From the IMG/VR virus record IMGVR_UViG_2861079508_000005: DNA of 28,687 nt. One strand, 5' to 3'. Position numbers and translations under genes: made by a program. The notes below the pieces were generated by a model, which saw only the letters and a program-made list of their open reading frames with translations, was not told the DNA's origin and made no database searches. This DNA is from a virus (lineage: Duplodnaviria > Heunggongvirae > Uroviricota > Caudoviricetes). Position 1 is the first letter of the stretch; every line of letters begins with the position of its first letter. Positions 20,688 to 25,122 of the stretch are shown piece after piece.

Positions 20688-21721
20688 TGAGCAAGAAAAA
20701 AGGGAAAACACCGCAACCTGCGGCGAAAAAAATGACCGCCAGCGCCCCGAAAATGGAGGCATTCACCTTTGGTGATCCGGTGCCGGTACTCGACCGCCGT
20801 GACATTCTGGATTACGTCGAGTGCATCAGTAACGGCAGATGGTATGAGCCACCGGTCAGCTTTACCGGTCTGGCAAAAAGCCTGCGTGCTGCCGTGCATC
20901 ACAGCTCACCGATTTACGTTAAACGCAATATTCTGGCCTCGACATTTATCCCGCATCCGTGGCTTTCCCAGCAGGATTTCAGCCGCTTTGTGCTGGATTT
21001 TCTGGTGTTCGGTAATGCGTTTCTGGAAAAGCGTTACAGCACTACCGGTAAGGTCATCAGACTGGAAACCTCACCGGCAAAATATACCCGCCGTGGCGTG
21101 GAGGAGGATGTTTACTGGTGGGTGCCGTCCTTCAACGAGCCGACACCTTTCGCGCCCGGCTCCGTGTTTCACCTGCTGGAGCCGGATATTAATCAGGAGC
21201 TGTACGGTCTGCCGGAATATCTCAGCGCCCTTAATTCTGCCTGGCTGAATGAGTCGGCCACGCTGTTCCGCCGCAAGTATTACGAAAACGGCGCTCATGC
21301 CGGATATATCATGTACGTCACTGATGCCGTGCAGGATCGCAACGATATCGAAATGCTCCGCGAAAACATGGTGAAGTCGAAAGGCCGCAACAACTTTAAA
21401 AACCTGTTTCTCTATGCCCCACAGGGGAAAGCCGACGGCATTAAAATTATCCCCCTCAGTGAAGTGGCGACGAAGGACGATTTTTTTAATATCAAAAAAG
21501 CCAGCGCCGCTGACCTGCTGGACGCACACCGCATCCCCTTTCAGTTGATGGGCGGCAAGCCGGAGAACGTCGGGTCACTGGGCGATATTGAGAAAGTGGC
21601 AAAGGTCTTTGTCCGCAATGAGCTTATCCCGTTACAGGACAGGATTCGGGAAATAAACGGCTGGCTCGGTCAGGAGGTCATCCGCTTTAAAAACTACTCA
21701 CTGGACACCGACAACGGCTGA
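20687..21721 (+). CDS. Q: portal protein gpQ
   Basis: 344 aa; start overlaps the P stop (ATGA); last gene before cos. Confidence 0.8.
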   Translation: MSKKKGKTPQPAAKKMTASAPKMEAFTFGDPVPVLDRRDILDYVECISNGRWYEPPVSFTGLAKSLRAAVHHSSPIYVKRNILASTFIPHPWLSQQDFSRFVLDFLVFGNAFLEKRYSTTGKVIRLETSPAKYTRRGVEEDVYWWVPSFNEPTPFAPGSVFHLLEPDINQELYGLPEYLSALNSAWLNESATLFRRKYYENGAHAGYIMYVTDAVQDRNDIEMLRENMVKSKGRNNFKNLFLYAPQGKADGIKIIPLSEVATKDDFFNIKKASAADLLDAHRIPFQLMGGKPENVGSLGDIEKVAKVFVRNELIPLQDRIREINGWLGQEVIRFKNYSLDTDNG

Positions 21722-21726
21722 ACATC

Positions 21727-21748
21727 GCCGCCTGCGGGCGGCTTTTTT
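21727..21748 (+). terminator. rho-independent terminator after Q
   Basis: GC hairpin GCCGCC-TGCG-GGCGGC followed by TTTTTT, 5 nt after the Q stop. Confidence 0.6.
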
Positions 21749-21890
21749 ACACCCCGTCATCACGCCCTCACACGCTCACCACCGCACAAAACACCCCGCA
21801 GACACACCAACGCCCCGGCGCACAATCCAAACGCCGTCACGACGCGCTGAGACGCTGAAAAAATAAAATCAGCACCACCGCCAGCGCGCA

Positions 21891-21909
21891 GTGCTTTCCC
21901 CGCCTCGCC
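21891..21909. other. cos cohesive-end site (19 nt)
   Basis: GTGCTTTCCCCGCCTCGCC is the reverse complement of GGCGAGGCGGGGAAAGCAC, which I recall as the P2 cohesive end; lies between Q and the early region as expected. Confidence 0.55.
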
Positions 21910-22193
21910 CGCCCGCTTCACGGGGCGGTTTTAATGCAGTTGCATAGATACTATGGATCCGCACCAGTCCTGACCGCACGCAGCCTGAACGGACATCCCC
22001 AGCGCATGCAAAAACATTCACTTGTTGCATGCATAGCTTTTTAAGTACGCCATACCGCAACTGTACATTTTTAAGCAATTGGCAACTTTAAAAAATTTAC
22101 ATTGCTTTCAAGACCTTATCATCCGTAGTCTCTGTTTTTTACTTTGAGCTACATCAATAAAATCTCAAACATGTTTAATGCAAAGCCCTTGTT

Positions 22194-22243
22194 ACACAAC
22201 ATAGAATGTATGTCTAGAAACAACGACATACTATATGTTGTGT
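22194..22243 (+). other. long imperfect hairpin followed by a T-tract (possible operator or sRNA/terminator structure)
   Basis: ACACAACATA pairs perfectly with TATGTTGTGT, plus an inner 7-bp stem GTATGTC/GACATAC, a 10-nt apical loop, then TTTTT at 22244-22248. Confidence 0.4.
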
Positions 22244-22309
22244 TTTTCCGGCTCTCTGTTCGGTGATATGCCAAATCACTTTGCGTTTAAACAGAGCATT
22301 ATTTCAGGG

Positions 22310-22324
22310 CAAGACTTCGCTCAA
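22310..22324 (+). repeat. 15-bp direct repeat copy 1 (CAAGACTTCGCTCAA)
   Basis: Identical 15-mer recurs at 22574-22588; the two copies flank the small ORF and terminator. Confidence 0.6.
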
Positions 22325-22387
22325 AAGTCATTCCACCTAACAAGCGCATATACCGGTGGAAGTTGCCCTCTACTTACAGGAGGCAAT

Positions 22388-22501
22388 ATGAAGAAATGCT
22401 ATTACTGCATTCTCGTTCTGGCCCTCTTTGGCTATCCAAACGGTAGTCCGAGTGGTTTGTCAGTAAACGTCAGTAATATCAATGTCAGCATTATGCTTTA
22501 A
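22388..22501 (+). CDS. hypothetical small hydrophobic protein (37 aa), candidate cargo gene
   Basis: AGGAGG 4 nt upstream of ATG; MKKCYYCILVLALFGYPNGSPSGLSVNVSNINVSIML; terminator immediately downstream; no homology recognised. Confidence 0.35.
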   Translation: MKKCYYCILVLALFGYPNGSPSGLSVNVSNINVSIML

Positions 22502-22513
22502 TATGCTTCAAAC

Positions 22514-22543
22514 AAAAAAACCACCTGCCAGGGTGGTTTTTTT
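22514..22543. terminator. bidirectional rho-independent terminator (A-tract / GC hairpin / T-tract)
   Basis: AAAAAAA-CCACCTG-CC-AGGGTGG-TTTTTTT; can terminate the small ORF transcript on the plus strand and the early operon after A on the minus strand. Confidence 0.6.
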
Positions 22544-22573
22544 GCGCCCATCATCAATACGATGAAAGACTGA

Positions 22574-22588
22574 CAAGACTTCGCTCAA
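22574..22588 (+). repeat. 15-bp direct repeat copy 2 (CAAGACTTCGCTCAA)
   Basis: Identical to 22310-22324. Confidence 0.6.
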
Positions 22589-22803
22589 GACGAATTATGC
22601 GTCGACATAAGGTTACCCGCAATGATTTTATTAGACTAAATGGATGGCCTTTTATGACCCGGATCAAACGGCTGTCCTTACCGACATGCTAGTCACTCAA
22701 TAGCATTTAGCCTTCTAATTCAGCATGCTATTGACCTTCTGCTGCCCCATAACTGCTCCGCATAAGCCATTCAATGCCATATCAAATCACGTTGTGTTTT
22801 TAC

Positions 22804-25122
22804 TCAAATGGGTAACGAGAACCCCGGCCACACATCAGCGACCAGATACGTGAATTTTTTTCCGTCATAATTTACGGTTGCTCCACGCGCCAGCGCCTCA
22901 AGTTCCCATCGCTGAGGCCAGATGCCGTTCTGAGCAAGGTCAACACGGATACGGGTAATTTGCATACGCTCCGACCGGGTCAGCCTGGCCGATGGCGCTA
23001 TTTCATTCGGTTTTAACGGGCTTCCGTTTCTTTGCTGACGGTTTGGTGTTCTCAGGCCGTGTTTTAATGCGCCCCTGAGCGCCCTCACGACCTCCGGGTC
23101 ATTCCATTCGATAACACCGTCATCAACCAGATTAAGCACGGCTGCGGCGCGCTCAGAAGGTGTGGGAGCCGGTAACGAAGTATCACCACCGGTGAGCTTT
23201 CCACAGTTATTGACAGGACTCCGAGGCGCGGCGATGCCGCTTTTTAAAGTCAAAGGCTCAACGACCGGAACTTTCGGCACAATGCGCCAGTCCGTGGTTC
23301 TGGTGATATGAATATGACGCGCGCCGAGATGCGGCGCGTAAATGCCGACCACTCTCTCGACCTCTTCCTCGTACTCGTTAACGTCATCCGACGGGCTACG
23401 GGCGACTCTGACAGTCTGACAATCGCGCGGAACATTTGCCCCACCCTGCGCGCTGATATACAACGCAAAATCACCACTGTCTGCGGCGGCGCGTGCAGCC
23501 TCGACGCGCTCGTCAAACTCATCAGCAATGCTGACGCCGCGAGGCAATTTGCGTAGTTCACGGTAAGCCCCCATTGTCGGCAGGCCAACCGTTTTAAATT
23601 GCGGAATGCGCCACGTTGACGCCCATGCGGTAACAGCCGCGGCAGTATCTTTCAGCGGTCTGCCGGTATCGTTATCGAGCTGCCCATCCAGTGCATAGCC
23701 GTCGATATTTTTTGAGATGTATTTCGCGATATACCCCGCAGCACCGCCCCGGTTAAGATGTTTTGCCTGAAAACGGTTTCGCGCGGCTCCTCTTTCGTCG
23801 CCATCCTCTTTGAGCGCATAGCGACGCATGATTTCGATAATCTGGTTACGCTGGCGTGGATTACAAAAAAGCATCATATGCCAGTGCGGCGTTCCGTCGT
23901 GGTGTGGCTCGACGACACGCAAACCGTAGGCCTGTAAATCATTATCCTTGAATGCCGTGCGCATCAGGCTCCAGATACGGCAGAGATAACGCTGCGCATC
24001 CTTTGGATTAAATGCCTCATCGTTCCAGCCGTGATTAAGCTGAACGGTTTTACTTTCGCCTTTTCCGACCTGACGTGTCGGGTGATACTTTGACGGCGCG
24101 GTCAGCGTGATAAACATCCCCACATCACCCTCTGCAGCGGCGTAACGCTCAATACCGGCAATGGTGTTCATCAGCTCCATCCGGCGAATTTCAGGATTAG
24201 AAATACTGCCCATCACCTTACTGATAAGGTCGATGCGCTCGCCGGTTTCCTTATTTTCAAGGTCACACGATTTAAGAAATTCCAGATTTGCCTGGCGGCG
24301 TGCACGCACATCACGAATGGCATGTTTACTGGCATAAGGAGAACGGTCTTTATTGACCTCCCCGACAGCAATCAGTAACGCCTCATGCCAGCGCATACGC
24401 TGGCCTTTAAGCTGATGAGTCCACCACTCATCGTTAAACAGACGGGCAATGGCAGAATATGCCTGCCTCGTGGTCATCTGCCCTTTACGGTATTTTTTCC
24501 AGTAGAGAGGGGAAATATTGAAAGCTCGTGCAGCGCCAGCAACATGACCATACAGGTGAGCCTGCGCCTCATCCGTAAACAGCGATTCTTTCTCGCCATG
24601 CGCATCCACCCAGGCATCGCAGAGTTCCTCATACATCATGAAAAGCTGTGATGAGATACGGGCGGCAAACTTTTTCAGCTCCTTGTCATTCATTCCAGGC
24701 AAACGCGCATAATGGTCACGCTCTGCCAGAAACAGCAACGACGCGTCGGTGTTCATTTCATGGCGCTGATTCACACGCTCAATGCGCGGCCATAAACGAC
24801 GCTGAAAAGTGGATGTGAGGAAATAAAACCCGTGCACCGGGCTTTTATTGCGCCGGATGTAGTCATAGCGTGAAGTAAACAGCGAGCGCAAAAAGTAAGG
24901 CAGGCGATTAATCGTGGATAAAACACCTTGCACCTGACGCATCTCGTCACGTGTAAGGGGTCTTTCGCGCCCGACGGCCTCGCGTGGCGCGTTCCATGCA
25001 TAAGCACCGGTAAACGTCTCACCGGTGCCTGCGGCAAATGCTGACGGAGGGACAAAACGCCCGGAGGCTTTAACGGCCATATGAGCCAAAAGCCTCTGAA
25101 CAACGCTTGCTGAGTTGCTCAA
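22804..25122 (-). CDS. A: replication initiation protein gpA (rolling-circle nicking endonuclease)
   Basis: 772 aa ORF; N-terminal sequence MAVKASGRFVPPSAFAAGTG...AYAWNAPREAVGRERPLTRDEMRQ matches my recollection of P2 A; true start possibly the internal ATG at 25080. Confidence 0.85.
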   Translation of the reverse strand: MSNSASVVQRLLAHMAVKASGRFVPPSAFAAGTGETFTGAYAWNAPREAVGRERPLTRDEMRQVQGVLSTINRLPYFLRSLFTSRYDYIRRNKSPVHGFYFLTSTFQRRLWPRIERVNQRHEMNTDASLLFLAERDHYARLPGMNDKELKKFAARISSQLFMMYEELCDAWVDAHGEKESLFTDEAQAHLYGHVAGAARAFNISPLYWKKYRKGQMTTRQAYSAIARLFNDEWWTHQLKGQRMRWHEALLIAVGEVNKDRSPYASKHAIRDVRARRQANLEFLKSCDLENKETGERIDLISKVMGSISNPEIRRMELMNTIAGIERYAAAEGDVGMFITLTAPSKYHPTRQVGKGESKTVQLNHGWNDEAFNPKDAQRYLCRIWSLMRTAFKDNDLQAYGLRVVEPHHDGTPHWHMMLFCNPRQRNQIIEIMRRYALKEDGDERGAARNRFQAKHLNRGGAAGYIAKYISKNIDGYALDGQLDNDTGRPLKDTAAAVTAWASTWRIPQFKTVGLPTMGAYRELRKLPRGVSIADEFDERVEAARAAADSGDFALYISAQGGANVPRDCQTVRVARSPSDDVNEYEEEVERVVGIYAPHLGARHIHITRTTDWRIVPKVPVVEPLTLKSGIAAPRSPVNNCGKLTGGDTSLPAPTPSERAAAVLNLVDDGVIEWNDPEVVRALRGALKHGLRTPNRQQRNGSPLKPNEIAPSARLTRSERMQITRIRVDLAQNGIWPQRWELEALARGATVNYDGKKFTYLVADVWPGFSLPI

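Follow-up and report, generated by a model that had tools for sequence, protein, structure and literature searches.

A predicted small-RNA-controlled, toxin–antitoxin-like cassette at the gene A edge of the cos-proximal hotspot of P2-like prophages

The window analysed here, the 28,687 nucleotides of IMG/VR record IMGVR_UViG_2861079508_000005, is a P2-like prophage of E. coli. Its portal gene, Q, ends at 21721, and gene A, which encodes the replication endonuclease, occupies 22804–25080 on the minus strand with its stop at 22804. Between the two genes lies an exact match to the reverse complement of GGCGAGGCGGGGAAAGCAC, which we take to be the P2 cos sequence; since this 19-mer is found at 21891–21909, position 21910 is the first base past cos. 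From the end of Q to the end of A, the window is 100% identical to E. coli chromosomal DNA situated between a ‘phage portal protein’ and a ‘replication endonuclease’, and RefSeq/PGAP annotates no feature in that interval of the chromosome. Comparative evidence suggests that the interval probably holds a self-contained type I toxin–antitoxin-like cassette of a new family, located at the gene A edge of the interval and comprising a gene for a 37-amino-acid (aa) peptide and a convergent gene for a small RNA (sRNA). The A–Q interval beside cos, between gpA and cos/gpQ, is a known hotspot of P2-like phages; P2 itself carries old and tin there, and its relatives carry many defence systems (PMC9122126). 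The slot is thus confirmed as the cos-proximal variable cargo locus of the P2 family for which it had been taken in an earlier reading of the sequence (hereafter the original prediction).

An AT-rich island was predicted next to cos, and it is real: the GC content is 0.38–0.425 in windows spanning 22000–22799, against 0.52–0.59 in both flanks. The island is shorter than the 21910–22803 first proposed. Positions 1–224, and up to 312/323, of a query running from Q to A match dozens of P2-like phages at 91–98% identity regardless of the cargo beyond, and only 21722 to ~22033 is held in common with other P2-like phages. Because the first ~125 nt of the proposed interval (21910–22033) are therefore conserved cos-flanking DNA, the true island begins near 22040. 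An inverted repeat, GCATGCAAAAA / TTGTTGCATGC, lies at 22004–22032, exactly where the homology to other P2-like phages stops, and could be a recombination or terminator element at the cos-side edge of the hotspot.

Within the island there is, as predicted, an open reading frame (ORF) of 37 codons led by a Shine–Dalgarno (SD) sequence, AGGAGG at 22378–22383, which lies 4 nt ahead of the ATG. Such a length is not above chance in AT-rich DNA, so the ORF is credible through comparative evidence only. An SD-led ORF of 37–39 codons that ends just short of a terminator is found in all 49 of the distinct variants gathered for this analysis. Among 18 distinct 37-codon alleles, the variable sites at codon positions 1, 2 and 3 number 22, 13 and 33 of 37, and the ratio of non-synonymous to synonymous polymorphism (pN/pS; uncorrected, with synonymous sites near saturation) is 0.16–0.43, with a median of 0.34. 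The peptide ORF is under purifying, coding selection. A deposited Salmonella phage genome annotates the same ORF as a 37-aa hypothetical coding sequence, and the peptide is rarely called as a gene: a padded query found 2 clusters among 5.8 billion. No long ORF is present, as had been noted; the longest, of 88 codons (22235–22501), consists of the 37-codon ORF and an in-frame upstream extension, and was rejected as a gene on finding the upstream part broken by stops in a clade of relatives with ~86% identity. Other small ORFs on both strands were rejected likewise, not being preserved in relatives.

Of 5426 complete E. coli genomes, 157 (~3%) carry the island (764 nt, 22040–22803); its copies form two clades, of at least 99% and of ~86% identity, and always abut the stop of gene A. 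The copy in E. coli W/KO11FL (NC_017660.1, 2624458–2625221), for example, is 99.7% identical. What occupies the slot elsewhere was established by sequence search: the island is the sole content of the hotspot in ~100 genomes, and in others unrelated cargo is inserted between the island and cos, for example an ImmA/IrrE peptidase with two hypothetical proteins, or a single 333-aa gene. In P2-like prophages of the 86% clade (L004/L005, 949–3124; L002, 258–2433) the cargo is a block of three genes, for a 313-aa hypothetical protein, a 199-aa hypothetical protein and a 161-aa ImmA/IrrE metallopeptidase. With the cos flank on one side of this block and the cassette on the other, new cargo seems to enter on the cos side, the cassette staying on the gene A side. 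Allele L009 has one 333-aa hypothetical gene as its cos-side cargo.

Homologues extend well beyond P2-like prophages. A sensitive blastn search finds 72–73% identity over 22093–22667 on ~390 large, mostly conjugative plasmids (394 of 423 matches being from Klebsiella), and no annotation lies beneath the plasmid copies; NZ_CP008829.1 has its copy at 35379–35937. An exhaustive HMMER scan with the 37-aa peptide returned 7 representative proteins, two of which adjoin Zot/secretin genes of filamentous prophages. The most divergent copies (L044, 3306–4528; L045, 1301–4125) adjoin genes for filamentous-phage secretin (PF00263), Zot (PF05707) and DUF2523, and three unrelated kinds of mobile element therefore carry the one cassette. 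Further copies, in Kluyvera, Leclercia and Citrobacter genomes, 36 metagenome contigs and 30 viral contigs, came from pattern scans. The variants gathered in total number 49, about two thirds of them retrieved by a pattern in which the terminator and the AATTATGC box are fixed. The unit common to the plasmid and filamentous-prophage copies is a mobile cassette of ~580 bp (Table 1).

These distributions bear on the possibility that the interval is non-coding phage DNA, either a packaging or replication sequence or the scar of a deleted system, in which the ORF and repeats are incidental. The interval adjoins cos, is AT-rich and has nothing annotated by PGAP, all of which would suit such DNA. 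The Q-to-A query matches 2161 E. coli genomes, nearly all in the cos-flanking part only, and just 157 of the 2161 carry the island, which therefore does not belong to the generic packaging DNA of P2; over 90% of the genomes that match the cos flank lack it, and it also occurs where there is no P2 cos, on plasmids and filamentous prophages. A remnant of a deleted system, one of the two readings originally offered, is likewise at odds with a cassette that all variants preserve intact, that evolves under purifying selection and that turns up again on unrelated elements, and the RNA covariation described below is also contrary to it. As judged from the sequences, the non-coding or scar reading is already contradicted by the comparative data, and is barely credible. 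The other original reading, an unusually small cargo module consisting of a membrane peptide and/or an sRNA, is supported, with both components here forming a pair.

The pairing is suggested chiefly by the two 15-bp direct repeats, CAAGACTTCGCTCAA, which the original prediction listed and which are indeed exact. The 5′ end of the predicted sRNA is complementary to the putative mRNA at repeat copy 1, in the 5′ untranslated region (UTR). In five variants CAAGACTTCGCTCA is replaced by TAAGGCTTTGCTCA in both copies, three positions having changed together. The bases that extend the repeat vary from lineage to lineage, yet the two copies agree in any one lineage (Klebsiella has TGG, the filamentous-prophage type GTGA). 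Single-position differences between the copies occur in the window and four further lineages, with G or T in copy 1 against A or C in copy 2, and every such difference is a G:U wobble for a plus-strand mRNA with a minus-strand sRNA and a mismatch in the opposite assignment. The predicted duplex has an energy of −30.0 kcal/mol in the window and −25.6 to −34.2 kcal/mol in 13 other homologues, where shuffled seeds average −16 to −21. Its core of 15–19 bp lies within −84 to −63 and always ends 63–66 nt upstream of the ATG. On this comparative evidence the two repeats are an antisense seed and its target, which the original prediction overlooked along with the residence of the cassette at the A-proximal edge of the hotspot.

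Alternatively, the repeats might act as DNA sites, either for binding of a regulator or for recombination that mobilises the segment carrying the ORF and terminator. Exact 15-nt copies do flank a 264-bp segment, and the cassette is mobile between replicons. Against this, the spacing and content are kept within a 580-bp unit whose ends lie far outside the repeats, the wobble-compatibility of all the copy differences in one orientation is not predicted by a DNA-site model, and copy 2 coincides with the +1 predicted for a conserved promoter and precedes an RNA hairpin that is strand-specific. Repeats acting as DNA sites are thus very unlikely. A 30-nt imperfect repeat (22259–22288 / 22770–22799; 73% identity) was rejected as due to chance; its second copy is outside the plasmid-shared region.

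The putative antitoxin sRNA would be read from the minus strand. Its start is predicted at ~22587, the first base of the seed and of repeat copy 2, and both hexamers of its promoter are kept, with the spacer free to vary in sequence, in homologues that were found without any pattern. Its central hairpin differs almost wholly in sequence between lineages and yet always folds, with 6 predicted pairs changed on both sides. Summed over 17 homologues, the folding energy of this hairpin is −157.9 kcal/mol for minus-strand RNA as against −93.8 for the complement, and its G:U pairs occur almost only in the minus-strand form; such asymmetry would be expected if an RNA were read from the minus strand, and not from a DNA palindrome. 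Upstream of the −35 hexamer, at 22625–22667, the blocks TTTATTAG, TTATGAC and ATCAA are kept from P2 prophages to plasmids, and might serve the sRNA promoter as an UP element or as a site for a regulator. Rfam models gave weak, terminator-only matches on the island (Phe leader, RNAI, OrzO-P with E = 1.3, STnc240), all far below gathering scores.

Both transcripts are predicted to end at one intrinsic terminator. That this terminator is bidirectional had been anticipated, and it has a perfect 13-bp stem, CAAAAAAACCACC / GGTGGTTTTTTTG (22513–22525 and 22532–22544), a 6-nt loop and a U-run on each strand. It is identical in homologues from the blastn and protein searches, with one loop change in an Enterobacter/Citrobacter variant. 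Stem and loop (UGCCAG / CUGGCA) are unchanged in homologues that are just 55–75% identical elsewhere, an observation drawn from the ~10 informative homologues. Such conservation is tighter than termination alone would appear to need. In par of plasmid pAD1, complementary terminator loops initiate RNA–RNA contact (PMC7472228).

It may also be asked whether the sRNA is the real cargo, acting in trans on host or phage mRNAs, with the adjacent repeat just one target or a decoy and the peptide secondary. The predicted sRNA is indeed built like a classic trans-acting enterobacterial one, its single-stranded 5′ seed being followed by a hairpin and then by a U-tailed terminator. A scan of 22550–22803 found no minus-strand terminator, and because the spacer lacks one, transcripts of gene A, in the early operon, should cross the sRNA sequence in sense and stop at 22544–22513; in the prophage such read-through would favour a trans-acting role, and it may couple antitoxin supply to phage gene expression. 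On the other side, the seed co-varies with the site in the neighbouring mRNA, and that site, copy 1, is the best non-self match of the seed across the 28.7-kb window (−30.2 kcal/mol vs −24.7 for the next). The peptide ORF is itself under purifying selection, and sRNA and ORF always travel together. A cargo consisting essentially of a trans-acting sRNA is accordingly improbable, although less so than repeats acting as DNA sites. The sequences are more in keeping with an sRNA directed at the mRNA beside it.

The mRNA itself would begin at one of two candidate promoters. Its best conserved candidate contains TA(G/A)AAT, which is kept, together with GATGCAAA, in 14/14 diverse aligned homologues; a consensus scan called no plus-strand promoter-like site upstream of the ORF. 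Between 22136 and 22209, upstream of the first stem-loop (SL1), are the family-wide blocks TTTTTACYTTG, TCAAWAAA, AAACAT, GATGCAAA and TARAATGC, which include this candidate promoter and are more than one promoter requires. Of the structured hairpin described originally, the arms at 22194–22203 and 22234–22243 are present, but the inner part is not kept in relatives.

The 5′UTR is predicted to fold into three stem-loops (SL1, SL3 and SL4) and a pseudoknot. Helices were specified on a 16-sequence alignment and their pairs counted in each sequence. In SL1, 92.9% of cells are paired in the outer helix, with 5/7 pairs changed on both sides, and 100% in the inner helix, with 2/4 changed on both sides. 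The corresponding value for SL3 is 86.5%, and 3 of its pairs are changed on both sides, as in UCCACC/GGUGGA vs UCCGCC/GGCGGA. The pseudoknot is paired in 94.6% of cells; in a variant subfamily, where it reads UCAUCAC/GUGAUGA, 3 pairs are changed on both sides and 2 on one side, so that its covariation comes from essentially one lineage. SL4 fares less well when columns are fixed (68.8% paired), as its register is not constant from one sequence to the next. Local folds nonetheless place the SD within a hairpin in nearly all of 14 homologues, and the anti-SD follows the variants of the SD (CCGCC/GGUGG, CCCUAA/UUAGGG). Over all UTR helices 88.8% of cells are paired, compared with 37–48% in slid controls, and 14 pairs are changed on both sides; these values were reached by 0/500 shuffles.

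Table 1. Features of the cassette and its surroundings, in window coordinates
Feature	Position	Strand	Description
P2 cos 19-nt cohesive-end sequence	21891..21909		exact match to reverse complement of GGCGAGGCGGGGAAAGCAC; context, outside the cassette
cos-flanking DNA common to P2-like phages	21910..22033		within the interval first noted, outside the island
Whole mobile cassette, ~580 bp	22090..22670		extent of homology common to plasmid and filamentous-prophage copies
Alternative upstream mRNA promoter	22096-22101 / 22117-22122	+	candidate; TTTACA / TATCAT
Candidate mRNA promoter, best conserved	22179..22207	+	TGCAAA 22179-22184, 17 nt, TAGAAT 22202-22207; start ~22214
SL1	22254..22296	+	outer CTCTGTT 22254-22260 / AACAGAG 22290-22296; inner 22263-22266 / 22276-22279; conserved loop UGCCA
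Pseudoknot, 7 bp	22280-22286 with 22344-22350	+	UUUGCGU (SL1 internal loop) with GCGCAUA (SL3 loop)
Putative sRNA target in 5′UTR	22308..22324	+	repeat copy 1 plus 2 further pairs; 63-81 nt upstream of ATG
Direct repeat CAAGACTTCGCTCAA, two exact copies	22310-22324 and 22574-22588		~0.0004 pairs expected by chance in 894 nt
SL3	22332..22360	+	UCCACC 22332-22337 / GGUGGA 22355-22360
SL4	22365..22384	+	anti-SD GCCCUCU 22365-22371 with SD region AGGAGGC 22378-22384
Small-protein gene, 37 aa	22388..22501	+	MKKCYYCILVLALFGYPNGSPSGLSVNVSNINVSIML; putative toxin; signal-peptide-like or membrane peptide
Putative antitoxin sRNA, ~78 nt	22510..22589	-	5′ seed, central hairpin ~22547-22571, terminator
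Bidirectional intrinsic terminator	22513..22551	both	common to mRNA (+) and sRNA (-)
Predicted sRNA 5′ seed, 17 nt	22572..22588	-	reverse complement of these positions; contains repeat copy 2 (22574-22588)
Predicted sRNA promoter	22594..22622	-	-35 TTGCGG (22622-22617), 17-nt spacer, -10 CATAAT (22599-22594)
Spacer, cassette to gene A stop	22671..22803		specific to P2 sub-lineage; plasmid homology stops ~22670-22700

This arrangement invites comparison with known type I systems, and in the first place with timP/timR. The timP mRNA has four stem-loops, of which SL2 contains the TimR site and SL4 traps the SD; its translation requires a 7-bp pseudoknot between SL1 and SL3, which TimR binding disrupts (PMC11228461). 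For E. coli K-12 we compute a 19-bp TimR seed duplex ~82–64 nt upstream of the timP ATG, so that in both systems the 5′ end of the sRNA pairs at an equal distance from the start codon. Also alike are the order of the UTR elements, the SD in the last hairpin and the 7-bp pseudoknot of the first with the third stem-loop, though the model of the cassette has no equivalent of SL2. Both encode a peptide of ~40 aa that begins MK..C.CI.L and has a signal-peptide-like N-terminal half, K-12 TimP being 41 aa (MKIRCFCIVLIV...). The systems differ in that timR is divergent, upstream and has its own terminator, whereas the sRNA gene of the cassette is convergent, downstream and shares its terminator, and in that timPR occupies a fixed chromosomal locus, sseA–sseB, while the cassette is carried by prophages and plasmids.

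No sequence test places the cassette in timPR. The Rfam ryfA model (RF00126) has no match in 21600–22950 at E≤5, nor in four family members at the gathering threshold; as a control, K-12 ryfA scores 314.9 bits with this model. A covariance model of the cassette 5′UTR scores 133 bits on the window and has no match at K-12 timP. Between the peptide and TimP, BLASTP gives no alignment and hhalign gives 9% probability over residues 1–11, and the shared start and similar length hint at kinship without reaching significance.

In gene layout the cassette resembles par of pAD1 (Fst, RNA I / RNA II), in which convergent promoters, a shared bidirectional terminator, direct repeats transcribed both ways and an SD held in an intramolecular hairpin have been described (PMC7472228). 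The cassette has convergent predicted promoters, a shared terminator with complementary stem-loops, a repeat transcribed both ways if both RNAs are made, and an SD predicted to be sequestered by intramolecular pairing. There is no sequence similarity to par, however, and the cassette has one repeat pair in place of DRa and DRb. Its repeat lies 63–81 nt upstream of the start codon in all homologues, whereas the par repeats lie over the translation initiation region. Unlike the Fst/Ldr peptides, whose signature is a transmembrane helix, a conserved Trp and a charged C-terminal tail, the cassette peptide has an uncharged C-terminal half, and the hosts are Enterobacterales rather than Firmicutes. 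By analogy, then, the control logic would be timPR-like and the gene layout par-like.

Several E. coli type I systems target the 5′UTR (general features are given in PMC11228461). Like tisB/istR-1, zorO/orzO, dinQ/agrB and shoB/ohsC, the cassette has 17–20 nt of complementarity at the 5′ end of the sRNA to a site far upstream of the toxin SD, and an mRNA that is predicted to be translationally inert as first folded. In those systems the sRNAs are divergent and upstream, the toxins are single amphipathic transmembrane helices unlike the cassette peptide, and activation involves 5′ processing and a standby site; no sign of processing is seen in the cassette. Rfam models of these four families gave no match to the cassette apart from the weak, terminator-only OrzO-P match mentioned above. 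With respect to hok/sok, there is no Hok-family match in Pfam or NCBIfam and no Sok match in Rfam. A full-text search for the peptide, the seed and related descriptions, which left subscription journals and T1TAdb outside, returned no paper on the cassette family.

Compared with old, tin and other A–Q cargo, the cassette occupies the same slot, but it has no protein-sized gene and no PADLOC match, is apparently RNA-regulated and measures 0.58 kb. As for such cargo, it is plausible by analogy that its role is expressed from the prophage. A type I system is defined by a gene for a small (<60 aa) hydrophobic protein, which the 37-aa ORF provides, and by an adjacent sRNA gene complementary to the toxin mRNA, which is found here in silico. 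The definition further requires that over-production of the protein inhibit growth and that the sRNA block its synthesis, as would have to hold for the putative pair. Taken at its most general, an sRNA-controlled small-protein cassette is very probable from the comparative sequence data; a true toxin–antitoxin pair is, on balance, likely, albeit with appreciably less assurance.

The mechanism envisaged is as follows. A plus-strand mRNA of ~330–420 nt would end at the shared terminator and expose a single-stranded sRNA site between SL1 and SL3. A minus-strand sRNA of ~78 nt would start near 22587 from TTGCGG-17-CATAAT and end at the same terminator (22513–22551). By analogy with TimP/TimR, the fold that contains the pseudoknot may be the translatable form of the mRNA, and pairing of the sRNA beside the pseudoknot would then disrupt this fold, with RNase III cleavage possible too. 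The peptide would be made only when the level of the sRNA drops, either on loss of the element or on shut-off of transcription by an infecting phage, and might then damage or depolarise the inner membrane. The biological role would in that case be maintenance of the element and/or abortive-infection defence. A more specific proposal combines these features: that the cassette is a minimal P2-hotspot cargo acting as an abortive-infection or addiction switch fired by loss of a labile sRNA, and a mobile branch of timPR type whose antitoxin has moved to a par-like position. This combination is no more than tentative, and as a whole is rather unlikely.

The peptide begins with a basic N-terminus, continues with ~13 hydrophobic residues and is polar in its C-terminal half. 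The family, of 37–39 aa, follows the pattern M-[KND]-[KR]-x3-C-[IL]-[LF]-[VI]-L-x-L-x-[GS] and then an uncharged half in which polar residues alternate with aliphatic ones; most members have Trp24, where the peptide of the window has Leu. No Pfam, NCBIfam, PHROGs, PADLOC or PDB family matches the peptide: with PADLOC profiles the window peptide has no match at E≤10, and the single match in PHROGs is non-significant (E = 0.34). An sRNA-controlled membrane or periplasmic peptide need not be a toxin. It could have a physiological or lysogenic-conversion role, for example modulation of an envelope protein or, once a signal peptide had been cleaved off, release of a secreted 17-residue peptide, and would then serve neither addiction nor suicide. 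Residues 1–20 are arranged like a Sec signal (n-h-c), with V-G-S before Q21 in most members, and the hydrophobic stretch falls short of the length of a classical transmembrane helix. Cells deleted for timR still grow when TimP, the closest analogue, is expressed at its native level (PMC7667032). The carriers, on the other hand, are almost entirely mobile elements (a prophage hotspot, conjugative plasmids and filamentous prophages), and a layered translational lock comprising a trapped SD, a pseudoknot and an antisense RNA is a hallmark of toxic products. A non-toxic peptide is thus the less favoured option and fairly unlikely, though it is likelier than a cargo consisting of a trans-acting sRNA.

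Several observations weigh against the proposed toxin–antitoxin-like cassette. The case for every family member rests on in silico evidence. Conservation of the terminator and of the AATTATGC box is informative only in the ~10 homologues from blastn or protein searches, because the retrieval pattern fixed both. The UTR structure was derived from the same sequences in which its pairs were counted, and the covariation of seed with target and that of the pseudoknot each come largely from one divergent subfamily, with a few wobble events, which amounts to few independent events. Two candidate mRNA promoters remain, and the better has a weak −35. The one promoter-like site that the consensus scan reported in the region is on the plus strand, at 22570–22598 (CTGACA-17-AATTAT), across repeat copy 2. 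This site points into the 3′ end of gene A and may be an antisense promoter, or may arise incidentally from the conserved seed and −10 box. No sRNA for the cassette appears in the list for K. pneumoniae MGH 78578 obtained by differential RNA sequencing and RNA interaction by ligation and sequencing (PMC10907235 supplements); the sRNA candidates on pKPN3 correspond to hok and to further loci, and no copy of the cassette is present in the 60 kb of that plasmid that were examined. As to the peptide, its hydrophobic segment is just ~13–15 residues long, and a single-sequence AlphaFold model is of low confidence (predicted local distance difference test score 60), with a helix at residues 3–14 only. 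Finally, since TimP at native levels is not growth-inhibitory (PMC7667032), the term ‘toxin’ may overstate the role of the peptide.

Surveys of P2/P4 hotspots use annotated genes, and by that measure an allele such as this one looks empty while carrying an apparently RNA-regulated cassette in ~3% of complete E. coli genomes. A 2026 survey found no P2 genome with both main defence hotspots empty of genes; that survey was gene-based and did not consider RNA cassettes (PMC13586616). The cassette also lies unannotated on hundreds of large Klebsiella conjugative plasmids and, if it is an addiction module, would contribute to their persistence. Should it indeed act as an abortive-infection or addiction switch, gene-poor hotspot alleles and many gaps in Klebsiella resistance plasmids would hide functional RNA-based systems. 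The combination of timP-like pseudoknot control with the layout of a Gram-positive par locus would amount to a natural experiment in which control of the toxin mRNA and placement of the antitoxin evolve separately. The system is compact and testable, with two promoters, a 37-aa ORF, a 17-nt seed and a 7-bp pseudoknot all predicted to the base, the mRNA promoter as a choice of candidates.

Two further observations concern individual carriers. On the K. pneumoniae plasmid pGN-2 (NZ_CP019161.1; L039, 3368–3455) there is an Rfam match to AgrB (RF02891; 45.1 bits, gathering score 40), ~550 bp upstream of the copy of the cassette and within 3 kb of DNA that lacks annotation. The type I toxin dinQ has AgrB as its antisense RNA, and a second RNA-regulated toxin locus may therefore lie beside the cassette on pGN-2. 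Two assemblies of 4.83 Mb labelled E. coli DH5alpha (H66/H72: NZ_CP026085.1 and NZ_CM135829.1) carry the prophage cassette at 99.7% identity; its presence is unexpected in a K-12 derivative and suggests that these assemblies are mislabelled.

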